From a virus, in the IMG/VR virus record IMGVR_UViG_3300009159_008968, positions 32,001 through 96,000 of that record: DNA of 64,000 nucleotides; one strand, written 5' to 3'. This document shows, in pieces, positions 14,313-48,043 of this stretch (its first letter is position 1; each line of letters begins with the position of its first letter). The notes under the pieces are model-generated. The model made no database searches. It had not been told where the DNA came from and saw nothing but the letters and a program-made list of their open reading frames with translations. Both the position numbers and the translations under genes were made by a program.

Positions 14313-17300
14313 TTAACCTTCGTTCATTCCTAATCTTTTTAACATTGCGACCAATTTAGGCGTTGGAGCAGAATCAGTATGAGTACCACCATTAGAAGAC
14401 CAGTGAGTGAAAATACCATAATTGGCTGAATTGCCTTTTCCATATTTAGGTACTCTTGGTGTACTTCCCGGTGCTGGTTTTCCATCAACAGCTCTAAATG
14501 TAAACGACCAAAGATTTTGACCTTGTATAGCCTGTTGTATTTTTGGATACCTTGTAAACAATTCTCTTATTAATTTTTCTAATGCTACAATTTGAGCATC
14601 AGTATATTCTTGATAATATTGATAACCTAACCAATTAAATCCTAAATTAACATTAGGAGGCATGATTGAACCCATAAATTTTTGACCATCATAATGGAAT
14701 CTTCCTCCAGCAGGGCTATAAAAAATAGGATTTCCATTATCACCATTACCTTTATCTGGCCTAGGTTCCATTTTTCCTAAATTACACATTTCAATTCCTA
14801 TTCCATGGTCATTCCAACTATTACCGTGAACAGAATAGATATCCTCTGGTATACCAGCTGCAGTTTTTCCTTGCCAATCTATTGCGTAATGAATACCTCC
14901 TGTTTTAAATGGACCTCCACAACTTCCTACGTGGTCAACTGTATCTACTGCATTCCTACCATATCCAGCAGTGAAATGTAAAGTTATAGAACGAACTTCT
15001 CTCTTGAAAAATTGTTTCTCTTTACCAGTGTGTATCCATATAAAACTATTTCCTCTTTTAACCGATGTACATGTATTGTCTGCATTTCGTTGTCCTTCTT
15101 CGTTGGGCGGTGCTAAACTAGTAGTTGCATTTGAATTAAATGGAACAGAAGGGGCAACAGCACCCTCAGGATATAATGTATCTAAAATTGTATAAACTCT
15201 AGTTCTATGTACTTTTTGATAATCGTCTCCAGCATTAACTTTTTTTGCTTCTTTTTCAATTGCTCTAATTAATTCTTCTTTTGGCTTATCAAGAGGAGCC
15301 ATATATTGGTATTTAGAAGATTTTGCATGAGTATATATTGCAAAACCTTGTATTGCTCCAGATGTAAATAAATCGTCCCAATCAGCATTAGAAGATTTTG
15401 TTAATATCACTTCTTTGTTTCCATTGTATGGACTTGCTTTCCAATTACCTTGATATTTTCTTACAATAGAATCAGTTCCAATGTATGTTAAAATAAACTC
15501 TACAAATTTTTCGTATTGACTTCTCCAAGTACTTTGAATGAATCCTCTGCCAGCAAATTTATAAAAGTCTGCTTCACTAATAAAAGTAGAACTTGTAGTT
15601 GCTGCATCTTGAACATTTGCAAATAAAGATTTTGGAAAAGTTGTTCCTTTCCAAGCTGCATCATTAGATTTGGCAACTTTAGGATCGGTACCAAATTTAA
15701 GACCTTTGAATGCATCAATATAATTTGGATTATTAAATAATTCTCCTGCAGTTTTATTTGGAGCTTTATTATAAGAAGCTTTGCTACGAGCATCTTTACC
15801 ATTAGTAGCTGGTAACGCATAAGCATCAAACGCATATGCTATTCCGGGATGTTCAGCATTACTTAAAGAATTCATTCCTTCGTGCTTACTTTGATAACTA
15901 CCTCCAGTTTCTTCATAAATAATAGCATTAAGTGCAACAAATTCTAAGAAATTGCACCCTGATGTTCCATAATCAGGCCAAACTATAGGTATAAGAAAAT
16001 CCCAAACACTCTTAAAATTAGCTGCATTTATTTTAGCATTACATAAAGGTTTTTTATTTCCAGCTAATTCAGCATTGAACCAAGTGGCAAAATCATTATA
16101 TTTATTTTTGGTGAATTCTTTTATAATCGGATTTATATCGTCTGTTTTTGTTATTTTTTTATTTTTTATTTTTTGTAAAAATGTATAATTTAAATCACCA
16201 CCAAAACCAAGATTTTCTGTTCCGCCTCCACCACCAACAGATCCACCGCCATCATAACTTTTTAAACTTGTTCTTGTAATTGGCATTACAGCAGCAAAAT
16301 TTTCACCACCACCATACTTCATTTTAACTGCATCAATGGTAGTTTCCATGTTGTTAGGAGTAATTTTATGTTGAACTTCTGTTATCCAATATAAACCAGT
16401 AAAAATAGGAAGACCTTCAACTGCTATTAATTGTGTTGGATACAACTGAGCATTACCAATTAAATCTAAAGATATTTTATAACTTCTTCCTTGCATTACT
16501 GCTAACATAGAACAATCAAAACTTTTTCTTTTATTTTGATTTTGAGGATTTGCAATATCACTTGTTGCTTGTATACTTTCAGATGTTACTTTATTGTCAT
16601 CTGTTCCAGCCTTAATTGATTTTACGATTACATTATTAGGATCGCCATATCGTAAACCTAAAATAGGTTGATCTATTTTATTTAATTGATCAAAGAAAGT
16701 ATCGTCTGGATAAATTGATTCATTACTATTATTTTTTAATAATCTATTTTCTGGTGTAGGGGCCCAAATAATTGATAAAGCGTTTTTACCAGCACCATAA
16801 TCTAATCCATTTGTTGGCAAAAAAATATCACGCAGGTCATCAGTTATTCCACCGGGAATAGGTTGTAATAAAAAATTATTCGTAGTGCAAATATTTTGCA
16901 TCATATTAAGAGTCGATGTCTGAGAATTATTTTCTAATAATGAATCTGTATTAATAATAGCATCTTTAATATCTATACCAGCAGTAACTTGATTTGCTAA
17001 TGGAAATTGAAAATTCAAATAGAAAAAAGAATTTTTGTCAGTTGATCTGTATGCATTTTCTAAAGCTGTTCTTAAATTCATCGATCTAGAGTTTGTACCA
17101 GCAGGCAAGCTCCCATTTCCTTCTAAATCATTAATATTTGCTAAAGCAATCCATGCTTGACAAATATGATGAAATTGTGTATAAACAGCGTTAATTTCAG
17201 CTTGATCATATGTGTAAGGTTGTGGCCCTGTAACTTCTGTTGTGGCTATGTCTGTAAATGCTCCGCCTCCGCCAAAAGCAGAAGCTGTTTGTGCATCTTG

Positions 17301-19727
17301 TACTTTTTTCTTTTTTACTTCTGAATCTGTTAAACTTAAATATGTTTTATTAGGATCTAATATAGCGCCACAAAAAAAGTATAAATAAGATCTAGTTAAT
17401 GTATTGTCTAAATCTATAACATATGAACTAGCATTTTTCATTGTTTTACCATCCAATAATCTAAAAATAAAATCATTAGGTTTTGGTGCTGAACCTTGTG
17501 CTCCACCACTTTTAGAATGTTGAACAAACATTTGTTGTGGTGTAAAATAAACTGAAGTATAAATTCCATTTGCATCAGGATTACCTAATAAATTATAATA
17601 ATCAATGAAAACAGATTTATTTTTATCATCAGTTTTAATCAAATCTGTTGCTCTAAACATTTGATAAAATGCTGAACTTGTAGTTCCAGTAATTGGAACT
17701 TTAGGATCTCCCATAGAAGGATCAAAAGTAGCTGTATCGGCTAACTTTTCACTAATTAAACTTTGGGCAGCTTGGACAGGATTACCATCCTTGGGAGAAG
17801 CATACACTATTATGTCGTTACCATCACCTAAAAGATTATTATTAAATAGATTATTTGTATTGGGTCCACCTAGAGTAGTAGCGACATCTTTAAGACTTTT
17901 AGGATTATGATATAAAATATCATTGTTATAAGTATATACAGATTTAAGAGTTGATGCGTCTTTGTTATAAAATTGAGCTGTTTCAGGAGCTTTAGGGAAT
18001 TTTCCAAAATATCCAGCTAAATAATTTTTAAGTGTTAAGTTTGCACTTGTAGTATAATTAAATTTTTGCGGGGATTTAAAAGCACCTGTGCCATCCCAAC
18101 TTTCTCTTATTACCTTACAAAATCTTGTTAAAGTTTCTTTTTCATTTCCCTTTAATTGATTCACTAATTCTTTGACATTTTCTAATTCAGAATCAATATA
18201 AAATTGAGCAGGTGATCCACTAATATCAGCAACAGAACCACCAAATCCAGAACCTAACAATCCTGCTCTTTGAATTAAATTAACAATTATAGAATCAGCG
18301 GTTGCAAAGTATGGTGAATTATCTCTAAATGTTTCAGCGTTTCCAATTTTTTTACTAAAAGTTCCGGGTGTAGCACCTTGAGTTGGATCTGCACTTTCAG
18401 TACCTTCTTTTTTGGCTTGAACTTCATCAATTACTTTATTAGCTTCTTGATTACCAATATAAAATGCTTTAACAAATTCCTTAACTTTTGCTATTTCTTG
18501 TGTATCAGCTCCATTCCATGGAATTTGTTCTCCAAGTGTAGTTGCTTCAGCATTTGGGTTTTTATTTTCAAACAAAGGATAATAGTTGCCAAATATTTCA
18601 TTATTTGTTAGCCTACTACTATCACTATTAAATCCTGCAAGACCACCTTCTAAAATATATCCGAGAATATAAGCACAATCACCAGCCAATCTTGTCATTA
18701 CATTGCCTATTGATTGGGTATCTAAAACTTTATTTTCTACACTAGAATAAGCTTGTGTTTTTGATAGATCTTGTACTATTTTTAAATTTTCATTTAGTAT
18801 TTTTTTTACATTTGCTTCTTGAATTTGTACAGAATCTATTGTTGTAGAAGCACTTAATTTTTTAAAGTCATCATTAAGATTTATTTGCGTTGTTGAATTT
18901 ATGCTTAAAAAAATTGATTTACCATAAACTTCTAATTGATTATCTGCTATTTTATTGAGTAATTCGCCTTTTGGGTTTTTTGTATTAATATTAAATGATA
19001 TTGATTTAAAATTTTTTCCAATTAAATCACTATCTCCGAGAATTGGATCTAATTTTAATGTTCCATCTCGAAAAGCAGTACCAATTGCATTATAGTTTCC
19101 AGAAAATGTTTGTAATTGTGAAATTAATGGGCCATATTTATCTGTAGCTTGTTGAATTTGAATGTTTATATCAAAACCAACTTTTGCTATTTCAATAATA
19201 GAACTATCAGATCCGTTTGTAGTATCGCCATTAATTTTTTTTAATTCTTTTACAGCAAACAAAAATTGATATGGTATATCATTAAGAAAACCAAAAACAT
19301 TAGGAACAAATTCTGCTTTAATTTCATAACTTCCGTCTGTTGGTACAAAAGTTGTTTTTACGGATTTAACTTGTAATAAAAAACTTACAGGTTTTCCAAG
19401 GTATCCTTTAACATATAATCTAAATTTTGGATATGGTAATTGAAATAATACTTTATAATTAAATTCTGATTCTTGATCATTAAAAATTAAATTTCCATAT
19501 AAATCTTTAAATGTTATACTTACTACAGGCTGTAAGTTTGGCTTTATATCTATATCAATACTAGTAATACCAAATCCTAAATTACTTTGAAATGGACCTA
19601 TTCTATAAGAATCAAGACCAGTCATATTAATAGGTTTACCTCCTCCAATAGGAGTTGCTTCTAGATAGAAATCCAGTGTTAAATCTTGTGGTCTAATTTC
19701 ACTATCTTTAGTATGAATTACTGCCAT
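14313..19727 (-). CDS. Baseplate hub / tail-associated peptidoglycan hydrolase (GH19-like plus Amidase_2)
   Basis: N-terminal hub-like region; late-control-D-like segment (LIGNAQLYP...GLYWITEVQHKI); EETGG...E and GRGFIQSTW..QY (GH19/lysozyme-like); ITLHFTAG, IHYAID, IGIEMCN, YTDAQ, THW (Amidase_2). Confidence 0.82.
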   Translation of the reverse strand: MAVIHTKDSEIRPQDLTLDFYLEATPIGGGKPINMTGLDSYRIGPFQSNLGFGITSIDIDIKPNLQPVVSITFKDLYGNLIFNDQESEFNYKVLFQLPYPKFRLYVKGYLGKPVSFLLQVKSVKTTFVPTDGSYEIKAEFVPNVFGFLNDIPYQFLFAVKELKKINGDTTNGSDSSIIEIAKVGFDINIQIQQATDKYGPLISQLQTFSGNYNAIGTAFRDGTLKLDPILGDSDLIGKNFKSISFNINTKNPKGELLNKIADNQLEVYGKSIFLSINSTTQINLNDDFKKLSASTTIDSVQIQEANVKKILNENLKIVQDLSKTQAYSSVENKVLDTQSIGNVMTRLAGDCAYILGYILEGGLAGFNSDSSRLTNNEIFGNYYPLFENKNPNAEATTLGEQIPWNGADTQEIAKVKEFVKAFYIGNQEANKVIDEVQAKKEGTESADPTQGATPGTFSKKIGNAETFRDNSPYFATADSIIVNLIQRAGLLGSGFGGSVADISGSPAQFYIDSELENVKELVNQLKGNEKETLTRFCKVIRESWDGTGAFKSPQKFNYTTSANLTLKNYLAGYFGKFPKAPETAQFYNKDASTLKSVYTYNNDILYHNPKSLKDVATTLGGPNTNNLFNNNLLGDGNDIIVYASPKDGNPVQAAQSLISEKLADTATFDPSMGDPKVPITGTTSSAFYQMFRATDLIKTDDKNKSVFIDYYNLLGNPDANGIYTSVYFTPQQMFVQHSKSGGAQGSAPKPNDFIFRLLDGKTMKNASSYVIDLDNTLTRSYLYFFCGAILDPNKTYLSLTDSEVKKKKVQDAQTASAFGGGGAFTDIATTEVTGPQPYTYDQAEINAVYTQFHHICQAWIALANINDLEGNGSLPAGTNSRSMNLRTALENAYRSTDKNSFFYLNFQFPLANQVTAGIDIKDAIINTDSLLENNSQTSTLNMMQNICTTNNFLLQPIPGGITDDLRDIFLPTNGLDYGAGKNALSIIWAPTPENRLLKNNSNESIYPDDTFFDQLNKIDQPILGLRYGDPNNVIVKSIKAGTDDNKVTSESIQATSDIANPQNQNKRKSFDCSMLAVMQGRSYKISLDLIGNAQLYPTQLIAVEGLPIFTGLYWITEVQHKITPNNMETTIDAVKMKYGGGENFAAVMPITRTSLKSYDGGGSVGGGGGTENLGFGGDLNYTFLQKIKNKKITKTDDINPIIKEFTKNKYNDFATWFNAELAGNKKPLCNAKINAANFKSVWDFLIPIVWPDYGTSGCNFLEFVALNAIIYEETGGSYQSKHEGMNSLSNAEHPGIAYAFDAYALPATNGKDARSKASYNKAPNKTAGELFNNPNYIDAFKGLKFGTDPKVAKSNDAAWKGTTFPKSLFANVQDAATTSSTFISEADFYKFAGRGFIQSTWRSQYEKFVEFILTYIGTDSIVRKYQGNWKASPYNGNKEVILTKSSNADWDDLFTSGAIQGFAIYTHAKSSKYQYMAPLDKPKEELIRAIEKEAKKVNAGDDYQKVHRTRVYTILDTLYPEGAVAPSVPFNSNATTSLAPPNEEGQRNADNTCTSVKRGNSFIWIHTGKEKQFFKREVRSITLHFTAGYGRNAVDTVDHVGSCGGPFKTGGIHYAIDWQGKTAAGIPEDIYSVHGNSWNDHGIGIEMCNLGKMEPRPDKGNGDNGNPIFYSPAGGRFHYDGQKFMGSIMPPNVNLGFNWLGYQYYQEYTDAQIVALEKLIRELFTRYPKIQQAIQGQNLWSFTFRAVDGKPAPGSTPRVPKYGKGNSANYGIFTHWSSNGGTHTDSAPTPKLVAMLKRLGMNEG

Positions 19728-19729
19728 TT

Positions 19730-20032
19730 TTAATTATAGTTACTACTAAGTATTTTTGAATTAAATTCAGATAAAACATCTGATATCGGATTAGGAACTC
19801 TTATTACTGCGCCAGAGGGTATATTAAATTCCATATAATATTGTGGGTTGGCTAACAATATTAACCAATACAAAGTATCATCACCATAAGCATCTGCGGC
19901 TATTCTATCAAGTCTAGTTTTGTTTGGATTGTATGTAACAAAAATATCAGTAGATCTATTACTAATTTTTATCTTAGGAAGAGATCTCATCTCTCCATTA
20001 AATTTTAACTTTGCATATCTTGAAACTGGCAT
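19730..20032 (-). CDS. Baseplate wedge protein (T4 gp53-like / LysM-like)
   Basis: RLDRIAADAYGDDTLYWLILLAN...IRVP. Confidence 0.85.
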   Translation of the reverse strand: MPVSRYAKLKFNGEMRSLPKIKISNRSTDIFVTYNPNKTRLDRIAADAYGDDTLYWLILLANPQYYMEFNIPSGAVIRVPNPISDVLSEFNSKILSSNYN

Positions 20033-20071: not shown

Positions 20072-23000
20072 TTATTTTCCAAATAGACCAAACGAACTGA
20101 ATCCCTGTGCGGGTTGAAGTCCTGTTATTAATGTTCCTGAAGATGGTGTTGGTTCACCTGTAACCGGTTCATTTGGTTTTATGTCATTATCTTTTTTAAG
20201 TGTATCATCAGGATTATCTTGTGTTTTTGCTAGTATTCCAAAGAATCCGTCAGTATCACTTGCTAATGGTGGAGCAATGTCAGGATTAATACTAGCCCCA
20301 TATTTACCAAGTATTTTAAAACCAAGCGTAACGGCAACCATAAGAGGTTGTACTCCGTCTGTAACTAACCCATCTTCTTCTCCAAAGCTATCTAATGTCC
20401 AAGTCCCTTCTTTATAATCATAATCAACACTATCAAATAACACATAGTGATCAATCCAATCCCCTAATTTCATTTTACATATTGGAGGAGTTATGAAATT
20501 GAATCCGGATCTAGCACTAGGGTTTTTAGCAGGTTTAGTTAATTTTTCAATAAATTTTACTCTATTTCTAAAATCCACTTTTGAACCGGAGAAAAATGCT
20601 GGTTGAAATAATAGATTCTTTTTCATATTAGCAAGTCTATCAGCTGTTTTAGATAAAGATGAAACAACATCACCATATCTATCATCTGGAACTGTACCAG
20701 TATTTAATAAATCTGCATAAACATTATTAAATCCTTTTCTTTGTTCTGTATATATATTTTCTTCAGTTTTATTTATTAGTTCAGCTTGTTTAGCTTCTAA
20801 AGCTAATTTTTCATTGTTTAAATCTTCTATTTTTTGTGTTAAATCACTAGTTTCTCCGTTTACTGGGTTATTTAATTTTTTATTATAAACATCAAGTTGT
20901 TCATTTAATTTTATAATTTGTTCTTTAGTTGATTTTATTTCAGCTCCTAATTGGTTATCTATAGAAACACCGTTAATTTGATCTTTTGATATTGTTGTTT
21001 CTGTAAAATTATCATTAAATGTTTCTTGATACGTTGTGTATAAATTCCAATTTACACCCATATCAACTTTTTGTGCATAATCTGTTAATATGAAAAATGA
21101 AATTGTTCCCTTTCTACTGCCTTTTGAGTAAGTGTACAATGCTTCTGGTCTACCAAGGAAAAATTGTTCATTCCAATCTGCTTGAGAATTATGAGAGAAT
21201 TTTTCAATATATGGAGGAAAAAACATTTTTTTAACATCAGAAGAAGTGTCTGGTATTGCAAGATTTTCAATTGAGAATATTAAATTTTTTGAAGAGGTTG
21301 CACCTTTGTAAGGGTTTACAATAGTATATCTTTGTTTTGCTCTTTTAGGGGCTCCAAATGCATCATAACCTATGACAAATTCTCTGCTTTTTTGAGATTG
21401 GTAATTTTGATTTAATAAAGAATTACCTCCATTTCTTATAGTGTTTATGATATTACTAACTCCACGTCTATGTCTTCTAAAGTCAACCTCAATTTGTTGA
21501 GTAGGATTTGTTTGAGCCATCATTGACTGACTTGTGCCCAATTCAGTAGAAGGTGTTCCATCTAAACCAATTTCTGGTTTTAAAATTAATTCAGCATGAT
21601 TACCAAGATATAATCCTTTATTAGCATTTATAACTTGAGCAGGTACCGAATTTGTAGCCTCTTTATCTCCTTTTACACGATTCGCAAGATAATTAGGAAT
21701 ATACTGTCCCGGACCTAATCCCTTTGCAGTATAGAAAGATGCTCCAATATCACCAAATCGTCTTCCATGAAGACCCATGACATTCATTTCTAACTGTCTT
21801 TGTTGAGCAAGAGCCACCCATTCGCCATTACCTTTTACATTTTGATTAAATGAAGGTCCCATTAAGTTCCAATGTGGAAAATCAGTATCAGGACTTTGGA
21901 GAGTTGCTATAAATTGATTTTTTAATTTATTTAAAGCTCTTATTATTGCTCCATTAATATCTAAATTAGAAACTCCTAAGAAAACACTTGTTCCACCAAT
22001 AAACACATTAACACCGAGATCAAATCCATCTGGATCATTTTTTGCTAACAATGATTCTCTTATTGGCTGTGCTTCTAAATCTAAGCTTACAAATTGTGGT
22101 TGATTAGAACTTAATAAATTATCTCTTTGTGGTTGTGCTAAAGCATCTAAATTTATTTGATTAATTTGATTACTAGATAATAAATTAGTTCTAAATGGAG
22201 CAACTAAATTATCTAAATCAATTATTGATGGGATGTTATTTGCTAATAAAGCATTTCTTTCAGAATTAGCAAGTGCATCTAAATCAATATTTGAAGGTAC
22301 ATTGCTTGACAACAATGTTGTTCTTATTGGAGCAGCTACAGCGTCCAAATCCAAAAACTGTGCTTGATTAAATGCTAATAAATTATTTCTTGGACTTACA
22401 GATTCTATATCTAAATCTATGTTACTAGGAACATTCTTTACTAATAAATTAGTTCTTGGATTAACAGCCTCTGCATCTAAATCAACAAACTGAGGTTGAT
22501 TTATTGCTAACAAATTAGATCTAATGCCAGCTGCTTCTGCATCTAAATCAACTAATAAAGTGTTAACATTTTTAGCTAATAAAGATAATCTTTCTTGTTG
22601 TGCTTGAGAATCTAAATTTACTAATAGAGTATTAACATTTTTAGCTAATAATAAAGATCTCTCTTGTTGTGCTTGAGCATCTAAATCTACTAATAATGTA
22701 TTAACATTAAATCCAAATAAATTTAAGCGTACAGATGTTGCTAAACTATCTAGATTTATTGTTGATGGTACATTAGCTGATATTAAATCATTTCTATAAC
22801 TCGCTGAAAGTTGATCTAAGTCAAATAACCTTATAACATTAGATCCTACTAATTTTTCTCGAATAGGCTGAGCTGTTGCATCTAAATCATTTACTAATAT
22901 TTTAGAATTTGCAACTAAAAGATTTTTTCTTAGTGGCTCAGAGAATTTATCAAGACTAATAAATTGAGGAACATTAAATGATAATAAATTTTCCCTTGCA

Positions 23001-26000
23001 GCGTTAGCTGTTTTTTCAAGATCTTGTGTTATAATAGAATTGTTTTTAGCTAAAATTTCTTCTCTATTTCGAGAAGCTATTTTATCCAAATCAATGTTTT
23101 TTATATTTTGATTACTAGTTAATGCATTTAATCTTGGTTGAGCTGATATGTTATCTAAGCTTATAAATTGAGGTTGATTAAAACCTAAAAGATTGTTTCT
23201 GGAATTCAAAGCTATTCCTTCAATATCAATTTTACTCGCAACATTTTTTTGTAAAATGTCTTTTCTATTAGAAGCAGCGATAGCATCTAAATCAATTGCT
23301 AGTATTTGAGTGTTTCTTGTTAATAGATCTTTTCTATATGGTTCTGCTGCTTTATCTAAATCAGGAAATTGAGGTATATTTTTAACAATTAATGATCTTC
23401 TTAATGTTTCTGCATTTCCATCTAAATCAATAAGAGTTGGAATATTTTTACTTAAAATATTAATTCTTTGCTCACTTGCAGTAGCATCTAAATCTATTTG
23501 TTTTATATTGTTTCTAGAAATAGCATTTACTCTAATTGGTAAAGCAATAGCATCAAGATCCACAAACTGAACTTGATTAAATGAAACTAAATTATTTCTG
23601 ATTGCCTGTGCTTGTGCATCTAAATCAAAAAGTTTAGTTTCGTTTTTACCTAATAAGTTGGTTCTTTCAATTTCTGCTAATTTATCTAAATCAATAACTC
23701 CATAAATATTTTTACTAACCAAGTTATTTCTAACTACAGTTGCAGTCTTATCAAGGTCAATTAATGTTGTTTGATTCTTCGATAACAAATCTTGTCTTTG
23801 ACTTACTGACAATGTATCTAAATCAATAAATTGAGCTCTATTAAATGCTAATAAATTATTTCTTAAACTTACAGAATCTTTATCTAAATCAACAAGGCTA
23901 ATCTGATTGAATTTTAATAATGCTACTCTGTTTGGAGCAGACAAATCATCAAGATTAAGTGATTTTTCTATGTTTTTCCCAATAAGAGTTTCTCTTATAG
24001 TTTGTGCTTGAAGATCTAAATCGAAAAATTTATACTCATTACTTTTAAGTAATAATTTTCTATATTGTTCAGACAAAGAATCTAGATTAATTCTTGCTTC
24101 TTCATTTTTGCTTAATAAATTATTTCTTTGATCATTTGAAATATTATCAAGATCAATAATTTTTGTTTCATTTTTACTTAAAGAAACAGTTCTTATTTCT
24201 AAACCTAATTTATCAAGATCAATTAATTTTCCGGAGTTTGCAGTAAGTAATTTATATCTTATTGTATTTGCTTGATTGTCTAAATCAAAATATTTTATTT
24301 GATTTTTAGAAACAAGATTACTTCTTATTTTTGTGGCCTGAGAATCAAGATTTATTGGAGTTCCTTCGTTTTTATTAACTAGAGTTTTTCTAATTTCAGA
24401 AGCTTGAGTATCTAATAAATCATTTTTTTCAGTATAATTATTTTTACTTAGTAATTTTTCTCTTTGAGTAATTGATGCTTTTTCAATATCAATAGTATTG
24501 GTTAAATTTTTACCAATAAGATTATTTCTTATTAACTGAGCTTCAAATTCAAGATCAACTATTTTACTTCTATTTTTACTTAAAAGATTAGTTCTAGTAA
24601 TTAAAACAAGTTCATCAGTTTGTACTGAAGTAGAATTTTCGTGATTAGCTTTTAATAAATTATCTCTATAAAAACGTGCTAGTTTATCAAGATCAGCAAC
24701 ATTGACAATATTTTTTGTTATCAATCCTTGTCTGATTGTATATGCTTTATCATCTAAATTTATCGCTTCAAAATTAACATTCTTAGATAAAGCATTTGTT
24801 CGTGCCTTTAAAGATATTAACTCTAGATTGGCTTCTACAATTTCATTTTTAGCTAATAGATTCCTTCTGATTTCTAATGCATTAGTATCTAGAGTAGTAT
24901 CAATAATTTTTTTGATATTACTATTTTTAACCAATAAATTAGTTCTTGTGTTTCTTGCAATTATTTCTAATTCATCACTTAAATTTTCATTATTTTTTGC
25001 TAATAAATTTTTTCTAGGATTAGCAGCAATATCTTCTAATATCCTATTAAAGGTGTCATCATAAGTATTTTTACTCAACAGTTGATTACGATATGTAACA
25101 CCAACAGAATCTAAATCTATTAACTTATTTAAATTTTTAGTAATTAATCTAGTTCTTTCAGGTAACGCAACATCATCAAGATTTAAATCACCAAAATTCT
25201 GATTTTTTGCAAGTAAAGGTAATCTTACTGTTTCAGAAAGATTATCTAAAGCACCATTAGCTTCTGTATAATAATTTTTACTTAAGAGATTTGCCCTTTG
25301 ATTAATCGAAAGAATATCAATATCAATTAAATTAGAAACATTTTTAGAAATTAAATTATTTCTTAAACGTTCTGATTCAGTATCAAGACCCTTAAAGTTT
25401 GATTGATTCTTGGCTAAAAGTTCTTTTCTGTAATTTTCAGATTCTAAATCCTTATTGACTACATCTAAATACTGATTTGATTTTAATAAATTTAATCTTT
25501 GTATTTCAGCTTGTTCATCAAGATTTATTAAATTAGTTTGATTTTTTGCTAATAAATTATTTCTATATACTTGTATTTCTTTTTCAAGTTCTAGTTGATT
25601 AACTATTTGATTAGAACTTAAAAGATTATTTCTTATTTCCTGAGCAGCTTTATCTAAATCAACAACTTTGTTTTGATTTTTAGTTAATAGATTTGCTCTT
25701 TGATTAATTGATAACGTATCAATATTTATAAGATTACTAACATTTTTAGATATAAGTTTATTTCTAGTTGTTTCCGCTTCACTATCTAAATCAACAGTTT
25801 TATTTTGGTTTTTTGCTAGTAAATTATTTCTAAATACATTTGTCTGATCTTCTAATTCAGATTCATCAATTATTTGATTAGATTTTAATAAATTATTTCT
25901 TTGTATTTCCGCTTGTTTATCTAAGTCAAATAGTTTTATTGAATTTTTTGCAACAAGTGTTAACCTTTGATTAATTGCTAATTTTTCAAGATCTACCGGT

Positions 26001-28738
26001 TCGTTTTGATTTTTATTTAATAAGTTGTTTCTGAAATCTAGTGCAAAATCATCCAGATCAATAATATTGGTTTGATTCTTTGCTAATAAATTTTTTCTTA
26101 TTAATTGTACATCTCTCTCAATTTCTAATTGATTTAATATTTGATTGGAACTTAAAAGATTGTTTCTAATTTCTTGAGCAGCTTTATCTAAATCAACTGT
26201 CTTAGTTTGATTTCTAACAAGTAAATTTTGTCTAATTGAATTATAATCAAGCCCTAATTCATTAATTATCTGATTTGATTTTAATAAATTATTTCTTGTG
26301 TCTACAGCCAGTTCATCTAAATCAATAATCTTAGTTTGGTTCTTTGCTAAAATACTAAGCCTGTAATTATCTGTATTTCTTTCTAAATCTGCTTCAGTCG
26401 CTACTTGATTAGATTTTAACAAATTATTTCTTTGCGTTTCCGCTTGTTTATCTAAGTCAAATAACTGTATTGAATTTTTTGCTACTAGGGTTAATCTTTG
26501 GTTAATTGCTAGTTGCTCAAGATTTACTGGTTCATTTTGATTTTTATTTAATAAATCATTTCTAAAGTTTACAGCAAATTGATCAAGATCAACTATTGTA
26601 GTTTGATTTCTAGCTAATAAATTTTTTCTTATACCATCAACATCATCTAAATTTGTTACTAATCCGACAATTTGATTATATTTTAAAATATTAGCTCTTT
26701 GAGTTTCTGCTAATTTATCTAAATCAAATTCTTTTATTTGATTTTTTGTTAATAAATTAAATCTTTGATTAATTGAAAGAATGTCAATGTTTATAAGATT
26801 ACTAACATTTTTAGAAATCAATCTATTTCTACTAGTTTCAGCCTCACTATCTAGATCAACAGATTTGGTTTGGTTTTTAGCCAAAATACCTAATCTTATT
26901 AAATCATAATTAACTTTATTCTCACTAACAATTTCATTCTTACTTAATAAATTATTTCTATTAGCTTCTGCTAATTTATCAAGGTCAAATAAATTATAAA
27001 CATTTTTAACTACAAGAGTTGATCTAACTTTTCCAGCAACTTCATCAAGAGAAAATTCTTCAATTTGATTTTTATTTAAAGAAGCCAATCTTATTTCACT
27101 AGATAATGCATCTAAATCAAAAAGTTGATTTTGATTCCTTGCTAATAAATTTTTTCTAACATCATCAAAATTCTTATCTTGTGGATCTATAATTTGATTT
27201 TTAGCAACTAATGTTGTCCTGATTCTATTAGCAACAACCTCAAGATTTTCTTTATTTAAATTTTCATTTTTAGCTAATAAATTAAGTCTTTGATTTATTG
27301 AAGTTTCGTCTAATATATTATTTGGACCACCTTCAAAAGTGTTTTTTGATAATAATGTATCTCTTATATCTTTTGCTAGAGCATCAACATCAAAAATATT
27401 TTTTAAATTTTTACTTAAAATTTTAAATCTAGCTTCAGTAGCTGTTTTTTCTAAATTATTTTCAGTAGTGTTCTCGTTTTTAGCAAGAGAATTATTACGA
27501 AATAATTCAGATTGCTTATCTAATAGACCATTTGATTCTGTATATATATTTCTTTTTAATAAATTAGATCTTTGATTAATTGATAAAAGATCAATGTTTA
27601 TTAAGTTAGAAAGATTCTTAGAAAGTAATTGGTTTCTTAATTCTTCAGTATTTTTTTCTAAATCTGCCGGAGGAACACTGTTTCTAGCTAACAAATTAAG
27701 TCTATATTGATCTTGCTTTGCTACCTCCTGTTCAACAGTAGAAGAAACTTGATTTGATTTTAATAGATTGTTTCTGTTACTTTCAGATAATTTATCTAAA
27801 TCAATTGTATTATAAATGTTTTTACTTAAAAGAGATAATCTTAGAGATGAATAATCTGTTGGATTTTTACCATTTAAAGAATTTTTACTTAAACTGGAAT
27901 TCCTTATATCTTCAGATAGTTTATCTAAATCTATTTCTCTTATTTCATTTTTAGCTAATAAACTATTTCTAACCACCACAAAATCGTTATCCATAACATT
28001 CTGAATAACTTGGTTTTTATTTAATAGTGTATTTCTTATTTCTTCTGAAGATTTATCAATATCATAAACTCCAAATTGAGAGTTTTTAGCTAATAAATTA
28101 TTTCTTTGATCATTTGATAAACTATCTAAAATTTGAGTATTGTTTTCAAATGTATTTTTCGCCAATAATCCACTTCTTATTTTTTCTGCAGCAATTTCTA
28201 CATCTACTAATGTGTTTAAATTTTTACTTAATAAATTAAACCTAGTAACATTAGCAGTTCTTTCAACACTATCTGGATTTACTATTTCATTTTTAGGTAA
28301 TAGATTTTGTCTGGCTAATGTAGCAGTTCTGTCTACTTTACCATATAATTGAGATTCATTTTTTGCTAATAAAGATAATCTAGTTTTTTCTGATAATTCC
28401 TCAAGATCTTGATTAGAATTTAATAAAATATTTTTTGAAATAAGATTTTCTCTAATTGTTTTTGATATTTCTTCTGTATCAGAAATATTTTGAACGTTTT
28501 TAGATAATAAAAGTGTTCTTAAATATTGAGAATTTTCATCTAAATTAGCAACAATTGATTGATTTTTGGCCAATAGATCCTTTCTTACCTTATAGGCATC
28601 ATATATATTTTTTGGAAAAGGGACATTTTTACTCAGTAACTGTTGTCTTACCGAATCTGTATATCCACCAAAAAACTCTTCAAATTTAGTCCTTTGCCTA
28701 CGTTCTTCTTCTGACTCAAAAGGAAAATCTTCAATCAT
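20072..28738 (-). CDS. Giant repeat protein with C-terminal baseplate/tube-like domain
   Basis: 2888 aa; about 2200 aa of DLDxxAxxxRxxLLxKN repeats; C-terminal FFPPYI..F...W....LGRPE.LYTY....R...ISF and PPICKMKLGD; lies between tape measure and wedge genes. Confidence 0.85.
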   Translation of the reverse strand: MIEDFPFESEEERRQRTKFEEFFGGYTDSVRQQLLSKNVPFPKNIYDAYKVRKDLLAKNQSIVANLDENSQYLRTLLLSKNVQNISDTEEISKTIRENLISKNILLNSNQDLEELSEKTRLSLLAKNESQLYGKVDRTATLARQNLLPKNEIVNPDSVERTANVTRFNLLSKNLNTLVDVEIAAEKIRSGLLAKNTFENNTQILDSLSNDQRNNLLAKNSQFGVYDIDKSSEEIRNTLLNKNQVIQNVMDNDFVVVRNSLLAKNEIREIDLDKLSEDIRNSSLSKNSLNGKNPTDYSSLRLSLLSKNIYNTIDLDKLSESNRNNLLKSNQVSSTVEQEVAKQDQYRLNLLARNSVPPADLEKNTEELRNQLLSKNLSNLINIDLLSINQRSNLLKRNIYTESNGLLDKQSELFRNNSLAKNENTTENNLEKTATEARFKILSKNLKNIFDVDALAKDIRDTLLSKNTFEGGPNNILDETSINQRLNLLAKNENLNKENLEVVANRIRTTLVAKNQIIDPQDKNFDDVRKNLLARNQNQLFDLDALSSEIRLASLNKNQIEEFSLDEVAGKVRSTLVVKNVYNLFDLDKLAEANRNNLLSKNEIVSENKVNYDLIRLGILAKNQTKSVDLDSEAETSRNRLISKNVSNLINIDILSINQRFNLLTKNQIKEFDLDKLAETQRANILKYNQIVGLVTNLDDVDGIRKNLLARNQTTIVDLDQFAVNFRNDLLNKNQNEPVNLEQLAINQRLTLVAKNSIQLFDLDKQAETQRNNLLKSNQVATEADLERNTDNYRLSILAKNQTKIIDLDELAVDTRNNLLKSNQIINELGLDYNSIRQNLLVRNQTKTVDLDKAAQEIRNNLLSSNQILNQLEIERDVQLIRKNLLAKNQTNIIDLDDFALDFRNNLLNKNQNEPVDLEKLAINQRLTLVAKNSIKLFDLDKQAEIQRNNLLKSNQIIDESELEDQTNVFRNNLLAKNQNKTVDLDSEAETTRNKLISKNVSNLINIDTLSINQRANLLTKNQNKVVDLDKAAQEIRNNLLSSNQIVNQLELEKEIQVYRNNLLAKNQTNLINLDEQAEIQRLNLLKSNQYLDVVNKDLESENYRKELLAKNQSNFKGLDTESERLRNNLISKNVSNLIDIDILSINQRANLLSKNYYTEANGALDNLSETVRLPLLAKNQNFGDLNLDDVALPERTRLITKNLNKLIDLDSVGVTYRNQLLSKNTYDDTFNRILEDIAANPRKNLLAKNNENLSDELEIIARNTRTNLLVKNSNIKKIIDTTLDTNALEIRRNLLAKNEIVEANLELISLKARTNALSKNVNFEAINLDDKAYTIRQGLITKNIVNVADLDKLARFYRDNLLKANHENSTSVQTDELVLITRTNLLSKNRSKIVDLEFEAQLIRNNLIGKNLTNTIDIEKASITQREKLLSKNNYTEKNDLLDTQASEIRKTLVNKNEGTPINLDSQATKIRSNLVSKNQIKYFDLDNQANTIRYKLLTANSGKLIDLDKLGLEIRTVSLSKNETKIIDLDNISNDQRNNLLSKNEEARINLDSLSEQYRKLLLKSNEYKFFDLDLQAQTIRETLIGKNIEKSLNLDDLSAPNRVALLKFNQISLVDLDKDSVSLRNNLLAFNRAQFIDLDTLSVSQRQDLLSKNQTTLIDLDKTATVVRNNLVSKNIYGVIDLDKLAEIERTNLLGKNETKLFDLDAQAQAIRNNLVSFNQVQFVDLDAIALPIRVNAISRNNIKQIDLDATASEQRINILSKNIPTLIDLDGNAETLRRSLIVKNIPQFPDLDKAAEPYRKDLLTRNTQILAIDLDAIAASNRKDILQKNVASKIDIEGIALNSRNNLLGFNQPQFISLDNISAQPRLNALTSNQNIKNIDLDKIASRNREEILAKNNSIITQDLEKTANAARENLLSFNVPQFISLDKFSEPLRKNLLVANSKILVNDLDATAQPIREKLVGSNVIRLFDLDQLSASYRNDLISANVPSTINLDSLATSVRLNLFGFNVNTLLVDLDAQAQQERSLLLAKNVNTLLVNLDSQAQQERLSLLAKNVNTLLVDLDAEAAGIRSNLLAINQPQFVDLDAEAVNPRTNLLVKNVPSNIDLDIESVSPRNNLLAFNQAQFLDLDAVAAPIRTTLLSSNVPSNIDLDALANSERNALLANNIPSIIDLDNLVAPFRTNLLSSNQINQINLDALAQPQRDNLLSSNQPQFVSLDLEAQPIRESLLAKNDPDGFDLGVNVFIGGTSVFLGVSNLDINGAIIRALNKLKNQFIATLQSPDTDFPHWNLMGPSFNQNVKGNGEWVALAQQRQLEMNVMGLHGRRFGDIGASFYTAKGLGPGQYIPNYLANRVKGDKEATNSVPAQVINANKGLYLGNHAELILKPEIGLDGTPSTELGTSQSMMAQTNPTQQIEVDFRRHRRGVSNIINTIRNGGNSLLNQNYQSQKSREFVIGYDAFGAPKRAKQRYTIVNPYKGATSSKNLIFSIENLAIPDTSSDVKKMFFPPYIEKFSHNSQADWNEQFFLGRPEALYTYSKGSRKGTISFFILTDYAQKVDMGVNWNLYTTYQETFNDNFTETTISKDQINGVSIDNQLGAEIKSTKEQIIKLNEQLDVYNKKLNNPVNGETSDLTQKIEDLNNEKLALEAKQAELINKTEENIYTEQRKGFNNVYADLLNTGTVPDDRYGDVVSSLSKTADRLANMKKNLLFQPAFFSGSKVDFRNRVKFIEKLTKPAKNPSARSGFNFITPPICKMKLGDWIDHYVLFDSVDYDYKEGTWTLDSFGEEDGLVTDGVQPLMVAVTLGFKILGKYGASINPDIAPPLASDTDGFFGILAKTQDNPDDTLKKDNDIKPNEPVTGEPTPSSGTLITGLQPAQGFSSFGLFGK
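22036..28650 (-). repeat. About 100 degenerate ~22-aa (66-bp) coding repeats with higher-order duplications
   Basis: R-to-R spacing counted as 22-23 aa in several units; block duplication at 531 nt offset (25990 vs 26521). Confidence 0.9.
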
Positions 28739-28797: not shown

Positions 28798-31700
28798 TTA
28801 AGTTCTATTATAATTAGCTTCAACAATTAATTGTTGTAACTGTCTACCGTTCAATTTCAAATCAATTTGAATAGGTTTAATTTGTACAACTTGAACACCT
28901 CCACCAGAATTACCGCCACCTACATTATTTGCGCCAGTTCTTCCTGCAACATTTTCAGTTCTATTAACTGTAGGTTGTGCTATTGCACTTTGCTTTAATC
29001 TATTAGTTTGATCTGTTATAACTGGTTTTGGTGCATTTGCTACAGTTTTTAATCTTTCACTTTCTTTTGAGTAATTTGACATAGATTGTGTAGAAAGTGC
29101 AAAATTTGATGATAATCCTGTTAAAGATCTTCCTAGAACCCCAAATGTAGCAGCCATAGCTAGAATTCCCGGAGCTGCTAAAAGTCCTTTAAATCCAAAA
29201 TTTATAAGCGTACTAAGCAATCCATTAAGCGTTGGAAGAGCAGTTCCTATAATTGTCCATGGAATGCTTGCAAATGTTACAAAACCTATACTAGCTTTTT
29301 GTAATGATCTTCCTAATGTTGCTAAAGCCAAACTTGCTGAAAACAATAATGGAGCAACTAAACCTATTGATGAAAACTTTAATAAAGTAGGAGTCAAGCC
29401 ACCTAAAATTGGAGCAGATATCGCTAAACCTTTCAAATCTAACCTAGACACTGCAGCTAATGATCTAAAAATTCTAGATACACCAGCAGCAGCAATAATT
29501 GCAGGAACTATAAATGGAGTTATTACTGACCACAATGTAATTGCAGTTAACATATTTTTACCACTAGCACTTAAAGTTTCAGCTAATCCCACTATTGGTT
29601 TTGAATCAATAATAGCTATACTCAAAAGAATTCTGCTTAATTTTCTTAAACCATAAGCAGTTAATATTGCAGGAGCTATTGCAAATGTAATTGTAGCAAA
29701 CTTTAATAAAGATTTTAAAATAGGAGTTGATGTTGAACTTAGAGAAGTACTTATACTAGATAAATTTTTAACTTGAATTTGTTGAACCGAACTAAGTATT
29801 TTTGAAAGTTTAACTAGTGATTTTGCCGCTATAATAGCTGGTAAAATTGCTAAATTTATAGAACTTAATTTGATTAATCCTTTAAATATTTGACCTGATT
29901 CTTTATTTATTACACTTCCAATACTAGATAAACCCTTAGAAAGAGTAACTGGTATTTGATTTATTATTTTAGATAAAACAACTAATAATTTTGCTGCTAT
30001 AATAGCTGGTAATAACAAAATATTAGAAGATCCCAATTTAATTACACCTTTAAAAACATTTGAAGCATTTGAATTTAATACAGTTCCAATACTAGCTAAA
30101 TTTTTACTGTTTATTGGTAAAATTTGATTTATTAATTTTGAAATAGTAACTAAACCTTTTGCTGCAATAATAGCGGGTATAATAAATATAGATGCAAAAC
30201 CAATCTTTCTTACACCAGATGATAACGAACTTCCTGATGACGTTAAGCTCGTTCCTATATTAGTCAAAGTTTTTGAGTTTATAGGTGAAATATTTTTTAA
30301 TATATTACTTACTGTTGCTATTCCTTTTGCAGCTATAATAGCTGGTAATATAAACAATCCAGCTGTGGATAATTTCAATAAACCTTTTGTTATTGGACCA
30401 CTAACTGAATTAAGTGTATTTCCTACATTAGATAATAATTTGAAATTTACATCAGATGTAGATTTCAATAATTTTGTAATTAGAACCAATGAGGTTGCTG
30501 CAGTTATAGCCGGTATTGCAAATGTTCCTGCTAATCCTAGTTTTAATAAACCTTTAGCTATCGGACCACTTGCTGAATTGATGGCAGTTCCTATAGTCAC
30601 CAATTTAACCAAATTAATTGGTGAAGCTAAATTTAATAATTTGGTAATTGTAACCAATCCTATGGAACCAGCTATCGCTGGAACAGTTAAAATACTTATT
30701 CCAGAGAATTTCATTAATCCCATAAATAATTTACCAGCTGAACTAGAAAGTGCTGAACCTAATTTTATTAATTTTTCACCACTAACTAAACTTACTCTGC
30801 TTAAGAATGTAGATATTTTCATTACACCTGCAGACGCTGCAATTGCTGGTAAAACAAATAAAGAAATACCACTGAATTTAATTAATCCTTTAAGAATTGA
30901 TCCGGCTGTACTGTTTAACACAAAACCTATATTAAACATTTTTTTGAAATCTATACTTGTAGTTTTAGATAACAATTTAGTTACTACAATTAATCCTGTA
31001 GATGCAATTATTGCAGGTAATGTAAACACTCCAACTAGTGCTAATTTTGCTAATCCTTTTGCTATGGGACCACTTGTATTATTTAATGTCAAACCAATAT
31101 TTGACATTTTTTTCATATCTAAATTTGAAGATAAATTTAATAATCTTGTTACTACTACTAAACTTGCTGCAGCAGCAACTGCTGGTATAGCAACAAAACC
31201 TACTAATGCTAATTTAGCTAAACCTTTAGCAATAGCACCACTGGTACTATTTAAAGTAAAACCAATATTTGACAATTTTTTATAACTTAAATCAGAAGAT
31301 GTATTTAAAAATTTGGTAACAACAGAAATACTTTTAGCAGCTGCTATTGCCGGAATAGCAACTAAACTAACTAAAGATAATTTTGCTAAACCTTTAGCTA
31401 TAGGACCTGCAGTATTATTCAATGTAAAACCAATGTTTGACATTTTTCTATAACTAATATAGGAAGATTTATTTAATAATGTAGTTACTACAGCTAAACT
31501 AGCTGTTGCTGCAATTGCTGGTATTGCGTAGAATCCTACCAGTGCTAATTTTGCTAAACCTTTTGCAATTCTTCCACTAGTGCTTGATAATGTATAAGCT
31601 ATGTTAGACATTTTTTTGAAATCTAGTGGTATAGCACTTTTTAGAATATTAGTTATTTTGACTAAACCTAATGCAGCTGCAATTGCTGGAATAATAACTA

Positions 31701-34700
31701 GACCCATCGAAGCTAAAGCTCCAAATGACTTTTTCAACATTGGAGTAGTCATTGAAAGAGATAAAGCTATATTAGTAAGTTTATTAACATCAATCGGTGT
31801 AGTAGAAGCAAAATATTTTGTAATTTGATTTATACCTCTAGCAACTCCGATTGCAGGTAGAATTGTAAATGCAGAACCAGCTAATTTACCAAGAGAAAAA
31901 AAGAATGGTTTTGAAACATTTGAAAGTGTATCAGATAGCGTGATTAATGCTTTTTCTTTAATTGTAGAAACTGTTGCTAAGTATTTTGATATTTGATTTA
32001 TACCTGCTGCAACTCCTATGGCTGGAGCAACTTGCAAAATTGATGCGCCAAGTTTACCTAATGACCAGAAGAAAGGTTTTGCTATTTTTGACAAAACTGA
32101 AGAAGCATTTAAAAGTTTTGCAGAATCTAATGCAGGTACTCCAAAAAGTGCTTTTGTTACTTCTAAAATTCCTTTAGCTGCTAAATAAGCTGGTCCTGCT
32201 GTTGCAACTGTAGGAGCTAATTTACCCATAGATACAGTAAAAGGCCAAGCTATTTTTGATAAAACGGATGCAGTAGTTAAAAGAGTTGCTGGATTTAGAA
32301 AAGGTATATTTTTCAATGTTTGTGTAACTCCCAATATTCCTAATGCTGCAGCCATTGCTGGGACAACAGCTACAGCTGCTGGTGCTAATAACCCTAATGA
32401 TGTAGTAAAGGGCCAAGCTATTTTAGATAAAACCGAAGCAGTGATTAAAAGAACTGCAGGATTTAAAAATGGTACTGATTTTAATGTTTTTGTTACAACT
32501 AATATTCCAGCAGCTGCCACTACTGCAGGAGCAACAAAAACTGAAACTGTTGCAATTTTTGCCATTGATTTTGCAAATGGAAAGGAAATAATAGATAAGA
32601 CTTTAGAAGTCATTATTAAGAAAACAGGATTTAATAATGGAACAGATTTTAATATTTTAGTTACTGCTAAAATACCAGCTGCTGCTACTATTGCTGGCAC
32701 AGTAAATATTGCTAATGAACCTAATTTTGCTAATGATTTAGAGAATGGCCAAGATACTCTTGATAGAATCGATGAGGTCATTATCAATGTTATAGGATCT
32801 AACATTGGAACAGACTTTAATATTCTAGTAACCGATAAAATACCTATTGCTGCTAATATTGCAGGTCCGGTAAATATTGCTAATGAACCTAATTTTGCTA
32901 ATGATTTAGAAAATGGAAAAGATACTTTTGATAGAATCGATGAGGTCATTATCAATGTAACCGGATTTAATGGAGCAACTCTTGATAACAATCTTGTTAC
33001 CATCATTATTCCTAATGCTGCTACTACTGCAGGACCAGTGAATATTGCTAATGAACCTAATTTTTTTAATGATTTAGCAAAAGGTTCTGATACATTTGTT
33101 AAAACCATTGAAGTTATTTTTAAGGTAACAGGATTTAATGGAGCAATTTTTGATAATAATTTTGTTACCATCATTATTCCCGAAGCTGCTTTTACTGCAG
33201 AACCAGTCAACATCGATAATAATCCTAATTTTAATAATCCTTTAGAAAATATACCTGATGACATTGATATTGATTGAGCTGCCGTCATTAATTTTAATGG
33301 TGAAACAGGAGATACTTTTGATAATGATTTTGTAATTGACAACAAACCATAAGCTGCTATAACTGCAGGACCTGTAAGTACACTAACAAGACCTAATTTA
33401 AACAATCCTTTTGCTAATGGTCCAGCTATTATTGATATAACATTAGCAGCTCCTATTAAAACCCCAGCTTTTAAAGGTGTAATCTTATTCAATATTTTTG
33501 TAATAGCTAAAATACCAATTGATGCTATCATTGCTAATGGAGCAAAAAATCCTGCCAATCCTAATTTTAATAATCCTTTAGCAAATGGACCAGAAACTAC
33601 AGCTAATGTAGCTGCTGCCATCATTAATACTGGAGCTTTTAAAGGAGTAATTTTATTTAATATTACAGTTATTCCTAATATACTAGCAGCTGCAACTAAT
33701 GCTGTTGGTGCAAATACTCCCAATAAACCTAATTTAAATAATGCTTTTCCAAATGGTCCAGAAACTTGATTTAAAACTGTTGCTGTTAAAATTAAAAAAG
33801 CAGGGTTTAATTTAGGTACTACACTTAATGCTTTTGTGACACCTAAAATACCTACTGCTGCTAATAATGCAAGTGGCGTAAGTGCTCCAACTGCTTGTAA
33901 TTTAAAAAATGATTTAACAAAAGGCCAAGCAATACTAGATACAACACTAGCTGCTTGTTTCAAACTTTTTTCATTAAGAGAAGGAACAGCTTTTAACATT
34001 TTTGTTACTCCCCAAATACCACCAGCTGCAAGTAAAGCTAAAGGTGTTAAAGCAGCTACCGGTATTAATTTTATAAAAGCTTTAGCATAAGTCCCAGAAG
34101 CAGAAGATAAAGCTGATGCATTAGCACTAAGTGTTTTTGTATTTATTAAAGGAATGTTTTTTAACAATCTTGATATTAAATTAATTCCACCAGCAGAAAC
34201 AACACCTAAAGCTACAAACGGACTTATTGCTCCAAGTTTTATTAAACCAAAAATCATAGCTGCAGAAACTGCTCCTAATGACATTCCAAACGCTTCTATT
34301 TTTTTAGTATCAACAATCGAAATACTTCCTAATGCTTTTGATATAGCCCATATTCCACCAGCAGAAACAATTCCAAGAACAACAAATGGACTTATTGCTC
34401 CAAGTTTTATCAATCCCCACATCATTTTCTCACTAACCAATCCCATACTTTCTCCAAAATTTTGAAGACTCTTAAGATTTATTACTTTAATTCTTGACAA
34501 AGCTTGAGATATGGCCCATATACTACCTGCTGAAACCATTGCCAAAACTGCATATGGTGCAATTGCTCCTAATTTAATTAAACCTTTAATCATAGTTCCA
34601 GAAATTGCTCCTAAACTTTGACCAAATTGACTTATTTTTTTAACATCAACAGCAGAAATATTTTTTAATGCTACGGCAACTACCATTAATGATGTTGCTG

Positions 34701-40945: not shown

Positions 40946-40956
40946 ATACTATAAAA

Positions 40957-41921: not shown

Positions 41922-42365
41922 TTAATTTATTTTTTTTAAAAGTTCTGACTTAATAAAATCAGGATTATCATAAATATCATGTTCCCAAAATCTTATAATA
42001 TCATAACCTAAACCTTTGGCTAAGATATCTTTATCCCTATCATTTCTTTGAGATTTTTTTTGAACTTCGTTTAATTCCGAATACTCTTTTCCGTATCCGT
42101 GCCAATAGTCACCATCAACTTCGATCAAAAGATTAATTTTTGGAATATAATAATCGAAAATCTTGTCCTTAACTATTTTTTGTGAAAAGTGATATATGTT
42201 TAATTCATCTAAAATTAAACCCAACTGAACTTCAGGTCCGGTTGGGTTTAAATGCATTTTTTTTGCCTGACGCTCTATATAGTTTTTTTTCTGAGTAGGT
42301 GTTTTAGGTATTTTAAGCTTCTTTTTCTCTTGCTTCAATAACCAGTTGATCTTGGATTTTGACAT
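41922..42365 (-). CDS. Vsr/DUF559-like endonuclease
   Basis: FDYYIPKINLLIEVDGDYWHG...DKDILAKGLGYDIIRFWEHDI. Confidence 0.85.
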   Translation of the reverse strand: MSKSKINWLLKQEKKKLKIPKTPTQKKNYIERQAKKMHLNPTGPEVQLGLILDELNIYHFSQKIVKDKIFDYYIPKINLLIEVDGDYWHGYGKEYSELNEVQKKSQRNDRDKDILAKGLGYDIIRFWEHDIYDNPDFIKSELLKKIN

Positions 42366-48032: not shown

Positions 48033-48043
48033 TTTTTATTTTT

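Follow-up and report, generated by a model that had tools for sequence, protein, structure and literature searches.

A tube-initiator-like protein with a giant N-terminal repeat array whose length follows that of the neighboring tape measure in uncultured jumbo myophages

Tail length in long-tailed phages has been explained for forty years by a single ruler, the tape measure. The locus described here raises the question of whether some very long contractile tails possess a second protein that is matched to their length. It lies in a 64,000-nucleotide stretch of DNA (the window; positions 32,001 to 96,000 of IMG/VR virus record IMGVR_UViG_3300009159_008968) from an uncultured jumbo myophage, the record of which is 135 kb long, about 55% complete by CheckV, and about 28% G+C. 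The gene in question, P0001, occupies window positions 20072 to 28738 on the minus strand, the strand of all other window features given below. Its open reading frame (ORF) is uninterrupted under translation table 11 and yields a protein of 2888 amino acids (aa) plus stop. P0001 was found to resemble tube initiators in its C-terminal domain and to carry a giant N-terminal repeat extension, the length of which is tightly coupled to that of the tape-measure-like protein encoded next to it.

An earlier, sequence-only reading of the window had noted about 100 repeats of about 22 aa with near-invariant arginine and asparagine. With an anchor pattern used as the unit finder (R, two residues, two hydrophobic residues, two residues, N), a gap-free run of 99 contiguous units was obtained from aa 31 to 2227, and both residues were invariant (R in 99/99 units and N in 99/99 units). 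The shuffled P0001 sequence gave a mean of 2.9 matches to this pattern and a maximum of 9. Successive units were spaced by 22 residues (62 times), 23 (21 times), 24 (7 times), 21 (5 times), 25 (twice), or 26 (once), and the self-identity of the protein at lag 22 was 0.245, against a family background of about 0.08. Per-position counts over the 99 units, numbered from the arginine, gave L at −8 in 76 units, D or E at −7 in 92, D at −9 in 53 (plus N in 18), A or S at −4 in 82, L or I at +3 in 92, L, I, or V at +4 in 98, and K at +6 in 65. The consensus DLDxxAxxxRxxLLxKN given by the sequence-only reading was thus correct, and the unit consensus can be written as (I/V)-D-L-D-x-L-A-x-x-I-R-N-N-L-L-(S/A)-K-N. 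The array as a whole covers positions 22034 to 28684 (aa 19 to 2235), each unit of about 22 aa comprising a predicted 15-residue amphipathic helix and a 7-residue loop. It is preceded by, and merges into, an N-terminal cap (28562 to 28738; aa 1 to 59) in which an acidic and aromatic head is followed by two special units (FF-G-Y..R..LLSKN..P...YD..Y..R..LLAKN). The consensus of the N-terminal 60 or so residues is at least 80% conserved among 66 homologues. At the other end, a junction region (21314 to 22033; aa 2236 to 2475) begins after the last unit with a beta-hairpin motif, G-V-N-V...G-T-S-x-F-x-G-V-S, which is kept across the P0001 family, and continues in helices predicted with low confidence.

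The repeat, the family of which had not been recognized in the sequence-only reading, matched no known one: Pfam and PHROG scans of P0001, its pieces, its C-terminal domain, and 50 homologues returned no family. Specifically, the Pfam scan gave no match at E ≤ 0.01 to known repeat families (LRR, TPR/HEAT, RTX or EF-hand Ca-binding, pentapeptide) and none to a Ca-binding or fiber family. An AlphaFold2 model of a 12-unit block (model mb0a377c74ed4, with 79 aligned blocks as input) consisted of twelve 15-residue helices with 7-residue loops between them (pLDDT, 76; pTM, 0.17), the low pTM meaning that no confident tertiary arrangement or solenoid packing was predicted. In the modeled unit, D(−9) stands immediately before the start of the helix and N(+7) immediately after its end, and a single hydrophobic stripe is formed by L(−8), A(−4), I(−1), L(+3), and L(+4), with the invariant arginine alongside. 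Because helix and loop are modeled without self-packing, the P0001 unit appears not to fold alone and seems to require a partner surface. A Ca-binding solenoid, which was one of three roles suggested for the repeats beforehand, finds no support in such a model, in which the units lack solenoid packing and the acidic residues are located at the start of each predicted helix.

The C-terminal residues of P0001, about 650 in number, are nonrepetitive. When the last 649 aa were modeled with AlphaFold2 and 50 homologues, a beta-rich, tube-like domain with a helical hairpin breaking into it was obtained (mean pLDDT, 63; 70 to 89 in the beta core). The beta domain is made up of C-domain residues 241 to 334 and 509 to 598, which are split by the hairpin (residues 342 to 428). 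In the window, the tube-protein-like domain extends from 20240 to 21313 (aa 2476 to 2833; C-domain residues 241 to 598), the hairpin insert from 20750 to 21010 (aa 2577 to 2663), and a C-terminal tail rich in Pro, Gly, and Ser, with a pLDDT below 50, from 20075 to 20239 (aa 2834 to 2888). Foldseek matched the model with 7b5h_AK, 7aeb_M, 9qgl_7A, 6j0n_b, 6rao_G, and 8kea_P/R (probability, 1.0; E values of 1e-4 to 1e-2, the best being 1e-4 to 7b5h_AK), and VIA-align gave Z scores of 9.2 to 10.6 over 130 to 150 aa to initiator chains, including 6j0n_b (Pvc7 of PVC; Z = 10.6 over 138 aa, root mean square deviation of 2.9), 9ay5_G (Z = 10.6), and 6rao_G (Afp7 of AFP; Z = 10.3). Tube-initiator chains came out on top in both searches, among them Pvc7 (9qgl_7A), AlgoCIS (7aeb_M), and the Anabaena contractile injection system (CIS). 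The fold was also matched by the 8kea "baseplate-initiators" of cyanophage A-1(L) and by P1 baseplate chains; the remaining high-scoring rows were generic helical hairpins that matched the insert alone. Sequence profiles A1 and A2 compared with solved structures gave just coiled-coil noise from this insert, and a lead from the ESM Atlas to PF11091 was weak (0.85; PF11091 in 14% of one cluster).

The position of the gene agrees with the fold. P0001 is flanked upstream by a tape-measure-like gene and downstream by a 100-aa gp53/LysM-like gene and then an 1804-aa hub/lysin gene, a four-gene order that is kept in about 60 loci. The order of tape measure, initiator, and hub is the one described for P2 and R2 pyocin (10.64898/2026.09.14.750843). 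Moreover, Pvc7 is a tube initiator equivalent to T4 gp48, and its LysM-like domain has been equated with T4 gp53 (10.1101/2025.04.20.649488). P0001 has no LysM-like domain in cis; its counterpart in trans would be the adjacent small ORF (19730 to 20032; phrog_7145 at 4e-10 and a weak PF11246 [gp53] match), a candidate baseplate "glue" protein that is found directly downstream of the P0001 homologue in all loci. Together, these results support the conclusion that the modeled C-domain is tube-initiator-like in fold and gene position while standing outside the curated gp48 family; the sequence-only reading had likewise taken it for a tube-initiator or baseplate domain, and the coiled-coil insert that it had noted corresponds to the modeled hairpin. 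P0001 shares with the tube initiators T4 gp48, Pvc7, Afp7, Mu gp43, and P2 gpU a tube-protein beta fold, a gene between tape measure and hub, and a LysM/gp53-like partner. T4 gp48 has a helix-turn-helix that clamps the tape measure at the tip of the tube (10.64898/2026.03.06.709160), to which the helical insert of P0001 may correspond as a possible analogue. P0001 differs from these proteins in having no sequence match to PF11091 or to any solved chain, in that its LysM-like part is a separate gene, and above all in its array, since known initiators are about 150 to 490 aa long and are without a kilobase-scale N-terminal repeat.

The neighbor with which the array must be compared is P0002 (28798 to 37521), which was not among the points raised by the sequence-only reading. 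It is 2907 aa long from a TTG codon, and a likely ATG at 37500 gives 2900 aa. A helical region is followed by hydrophobic repeats, and self-comparison revealed about 33 repeats of exactly 56 aa in perfect register (29353 to 34881), indel-free over about 1850 residues and with a lag-56 identity of 0.48. A sister phage, G001, has about 26 such repeats, and the tape measures of other lineages in the family are without periodicity. Pfam and PHROG scans gave no tape-measure family match for the P0002 of the window. Since homologues of P0002 occupy the same position in all related loci, 3 of 29 of them match PHROG "tail length tape measure protein" families, and ESM Atlas neighbors of P0002 include PF10145 clusters, its assignment as a tape measure is well supported as judged from sequence and context, and we use that name for it below.

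Length coupling between the two proteins was evident in a set of 46 nonredundant loci in which both genes were complete. The length of the N-extension equaled 0.83 times the tape-measure length minus 157 (r = 0.98; Spearman = 0.88; n = 46). Felsenstein contrasts on a tree of the C-domain, where long forms appeared in at least two to four separate clades, gave r = 0.93 and a slope of 0.84, with the ten largest contrasts all of the same sign. The shortest pairs joined a tape measure of about 1000 aa to an N-extension of about 520 to 640 aa, and the common pairs joined about 1130 aa to about 820 aa; longer pairs were 1488 and 1056 aa (L002), 1594 and 1222 aa (L110), 1650 and 1164 aa (L053), and about 2505 to 2535 and 1928 aa (L047/G001), up to 2900 to 2907 and 2235 aa in the window. 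Between the window and sister phage G001, the tape measures differ by 395 aa (2900 versus 2505 aa), which is equal to seven 56-aa repeats, and the arrays differ by exactly 14 units (99 versus 85), a ratio of 2:1.

This coupling bears on all explanations of the array. The least probable of them, to our minds, is that P0001 forms a baseplate-distal filament, an adhesin, or a Ca-binding solenoid unrelated to tail length. Fibers are common among giant repetitive proteins, and P0001 combines great length and a hydrophilic character with repeats in which acidic residues recur; such a role leaves the correlation with tape-measure length and the match of 7 to 14 repeats unexplained, sits poorly with the burial of tube initiators in the baseplate core, and finds neither predicted solenoid packing nor a Ca-binding or fiber family in Pfam. 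Of the three roles offered by the sequence-only reading, a second ruler is consequently the best fit, given how closely the number of repeats follows the length of the neighboring tape measure; the Ca-binding solenoid finds no support, and a filament would need to account for the coupling.

P0001 could itself be the true ruler. P0002 would then be mainly an ejection or channel protein that inserts into the membrane, its length following passively. P0001 does have the anatomy of a ruler, being anchored at one end, capped by a conserved segment at the other, and periodic in between, and P0002 consists mostly of hydrophobic 56-aa repeats. Like the tape measures lambda gpH, T4 gp29, and TP901-1 TMP, P0001 would scale in length with the tail (as judged with the neighboring tape measure as a proxy), changes size by tandem repeat units, and has a predicted baseplate-anchored end and a conserved far end. 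Unlike them, it carries neither PF10145 nor the signature of a tape-measure PHROG, is hydrophilic where they are hydrophobic, is built of short helices and loops rather than long helices, and is fused to a tube-fold domain alongside a bona fide tape-measure-like gene. Correlation alone cannot tell which protein sets length, and homologues of P0002 both match tape-measure PHROGs and hold the tape-measure position; we therefore regard this exchange of roles as very unlikely.

The coupling would equally fit an assembly-only chaperone in which concatenated units, fused to the initiator, coat the tape measure as lambda gpG/gpGT do and are later cleaved, so that they are absent from the virion. The units are amphipathic and not self-folding, and the region upstream of the tape measure revealed no recognizable frameshifted chaperone pair. 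P0001 units would share with gpG/gpGT the covering of the tape measure along its length, and differ from those small, separate frameshift products, which are absent from virions, in having no apparent sequence or fold relation to them. There is neither a protease site nor evidence of cleavage in P0001, nothing in the tape measures, most lineages of which show no periodicity, corresponds to the conserved 22-aa period, and a conserved N-terminal cap would be unexpected in a pure coat. A chaperone of this kind is decidedly improbable.

The slope of the length relation suggests what the units might be in step with. At 22.3/0.83, each unit corresponds to about 27 tape-measure residues. If the tape measure spans 1.5 Å per residue, as established for lambda and T4, one unit would equal about 40 Å. 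Reported ring rises are 39.8 Å (PVC), 37.7 Å (phiKZ), and about 35 Å (Mu), and a 15-residue helix with a stretched 7-residue loop can span about 40 to 46 Å. We infer that there is about one P0001 unit per ring of tube and sheath. The boldest form of this idea is a quantized second ruler, in which each 22-aa rung of a strap tethered to the initiator would dock one tube/sheath ring, and length and register would be read ring by ring; it is a tentative proposal that we consider somewhat unlikely. If true, a ladder-type readout would be a mechanism separate from the continuous tape measure and would possibly let contractile tails of 160 to 440 nm assemble accurately and stay cocked.

The length coupling, together with the conservation of the period and of both ends, speaks for an array that extends over the entire tail and keeps in register with a periodic structure. 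We propose that P0001 is an initiator with an external strap that runs along the tube, under or along the sheath, from one end of the tail to the other with about one unit to each ring, an arrangement to which we give somewhat less than an even chance. The C-terminal tube-like domain would sit in the baseplate, on the hub, and nucleate the tube. The N-terminal 2235 residues would form a flexible strap of 99 units over the whole tail in register with its lattice, and the conserved cap would reach the head-proximal end. Selection would keep the strap matched to the tape measure, making it a second length-matched element, and the strap may either register or stabilize the tube and sheath of a very long tail or else co-determine tail length.

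The path of such a strap is suggested by analogy. In T4, gp48 places its N terminus and anchor loop outside the tube, with gp53 on one side and the first sheath ring on the other (10.64898/2026.03.06.709160); if this topology is shared, the extension of P0001 would exit at the baseplate-sheath interface and follow the outer face of the tube, most likely under or along the sheath. In phiKZ, a positive charge has been reported for the outer tube face; the N-extension is hydrophilic and, in most lineages, net acidic. The "ripcord" of R2 pyocin and the gp48 anchor loop, initiator-layer extensions that thread the baseplate-sheath interface and hold the precontraction state, set a plausible precedent for a strap that the initiator would carry on the outside of the tube. 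Those elements are local, are tens of residues long, and are confined to the baseplate, whereas the P0001 array would be as long as the tail.

The same length coupling and 2:1 repeat quantization apply equally to a path inside the tube, where six N-extensions would act as a co-ruler, or a sheath for the tape measure, by lining the luminal wall or wrapping hydrophobic tape-measure helices, to be expelled or pushed aside at infection. Each helix offers one hydrophobic stripe, the tape measure is hydrophobic (Kyte-Doolittle [KD] hydropathy, +0.6 in the window), and gp48 elements of T4 touch the tape measure in the lumen. With the topology of T4 gp48, however, the N terminus lies outside the tube wall and would not enter the lumen. 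Six further chains in addition to three to six tape-measure chains would be a tight fit in a lumen of about 45 Å. The negative charge reported for tube lumens is a poor match for an extension that in most lineages is net acidic, and the exit of DNA would be hindered by a chain still attached to the initiator unless cleavage had freed it. Hydropathy and charge of the extension showed no significant correlation with those of the tape measure and so lend no support to direct coating. A luminal course is thus unlikely in our estimation, and the external strap remains the reading that we prefer.

Several points weigh against the external strap and its ring register. Within the short-tailed majority alone, the slope of the length relation is steeper (1.75), and one unit per ring therefore rests mainly on the long-tailed lineages and on the assumed 1.5 Å per residue. 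Distant relatives with the same synteny break the length rule (in L129, a tape measure of 837 aa accompanies an N-region of about 1170 aa). The PF11091 profile (T4_tail_cap, T4 gp48) had no match at E ≤ 10 in the phage's own genome; the analogy with gp48 is one of fold only. When GenBank phages were searched by tblastn with five diverse members, no member of the family was found, and none is known from a cultured phage; the search itself worked, since a DnaB control matched 3462 records. Finally, no protein is known to us to take a course between tube and sheath, where space is tight.

To define the family, HMMER was run exhaustively with the last 649 aa as the query, and 1135 representative metagenomic proteins were returned (E ≤ 0.001); among the best-scoring matches listed, most were 1000 to 1500 aa long with the tube-like domain at the C terminus. 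A word-index homologue search had found one true long relative alone. Loci were retrieved from IMG/VR (39 loci), from metagenomes (80 loci), and from one Logan contig. In 63 of 66 nonredundant full-length homologues, the best self-similarity lag of the N-extension was 22 aa (44 in two and 23 in one), a period that persists despite drift of the motif to forms such as S-D-L-E-x-D-S-x-x-F-R-x-x-x-L-S-K-N-V-P. Distant relatives of the tube-like domain (P0091-P0157; L129, 8001 to 12542) have the same synteny and a long, nonrepetitive N-region with a single N-terminal F-R-D-x-L-L-x-R-N-L motif and no array. Because they carry the motif singly, the array looks like an amplification of an ancestral N-terminal motif. 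In one phage recovered from two samples, the P0001 homologue appeared as ORFs of 756 and 570 aa in L009 and as one ORF of 1362 aa in L010; the split is a frameshift or an assembly error within the repeat array. We found no account in the literature of an initiator that bears a length-matched array, nor of any second ruler. A paper on Moraphage was considered as a description of the clade and set aside, as it reports that no tape measure was found, and the P0001 protein is not described there (PMC12619734).

Other tail genes complete the picture of the locus. The 1804-aa protein in the hub/spike position (14313 to 19727) is placed there by synteny; a C-terminal Amidase_2 domain is its sole recognized domain, and about 1550 N-terminal residues are without a family. 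Two paralogous baseplate-hub genes of the phrog_150/T4_baseplate type (39992 to 41835) are situated upstream of the tail module. The tail is contractile, because the genome carries two sheath genes and a gp19-like tube gene. The sheath paralogues (786 and 786 aa) are outside the window, at G000:C1 about 124 to 129 kb (L125 and L126), and those of G001 (786 and 879 aa) are at G001:C1 209.9 to 213.1 kb. Two sheath genes were limited to the two longest-tailed genomes, one being present in four relatives with tape measures of about 1000 to 1100 aa. Alternating sheath layers, as in PVC, are possible. A two-ring superperiod that would combine 44-aa and 56-aa periods with alternating sheath paralogues is unproven, and 44-aa superperiods occur in single-sheath relatives too.

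Elsewhere in the window, the family A DNA polymerase is fragmented into parts of 530 and 878 aa with a 354-aa homing-endonuclease ORF between them (45396 to 50736), and a further polymerase-like ORF of 540 aa lies 30 kb away (12652 to 14274). The large subunit of ribonucleotide reductase (4303 to 7812; 1169 aa) contains an internal HNH-endonuclease-like stretch (about aa 453 to 490) that is possibly an intein. HNH and homing-endonuclease ORFs are also scattered among the replication and baseplate genes, e.g., at 41922 to 42365 and 48044 to 49108.

For phage biology, P0001 suggests that long contractile tails have a second part matched to their length that has so far gone undescribed. A large clade of uncultured jumbo myophages, with contigs of up to 519 kb, has besides its tape measure a second protein whose array keeps in step with it, and the protein that bears the array is fused to the part predicted to nucleate the tube. 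Since the family has no Pfam or PHROG annotation, the analysis supplies names for three large genes (tape measure, initiator-strap, and hub-lysin) that apply to hundreds of metagenomic phage genomes, and it also yields a simple way to predict from sequence how long tails would be relative to one another. An array that does lie along the tail would be a new structural layer of contractile injection machines and would offer a handle on how very long tails are measured, registered, and held extended; should a ladder-type register prove real, the array-bearing initiator would be categorically new.

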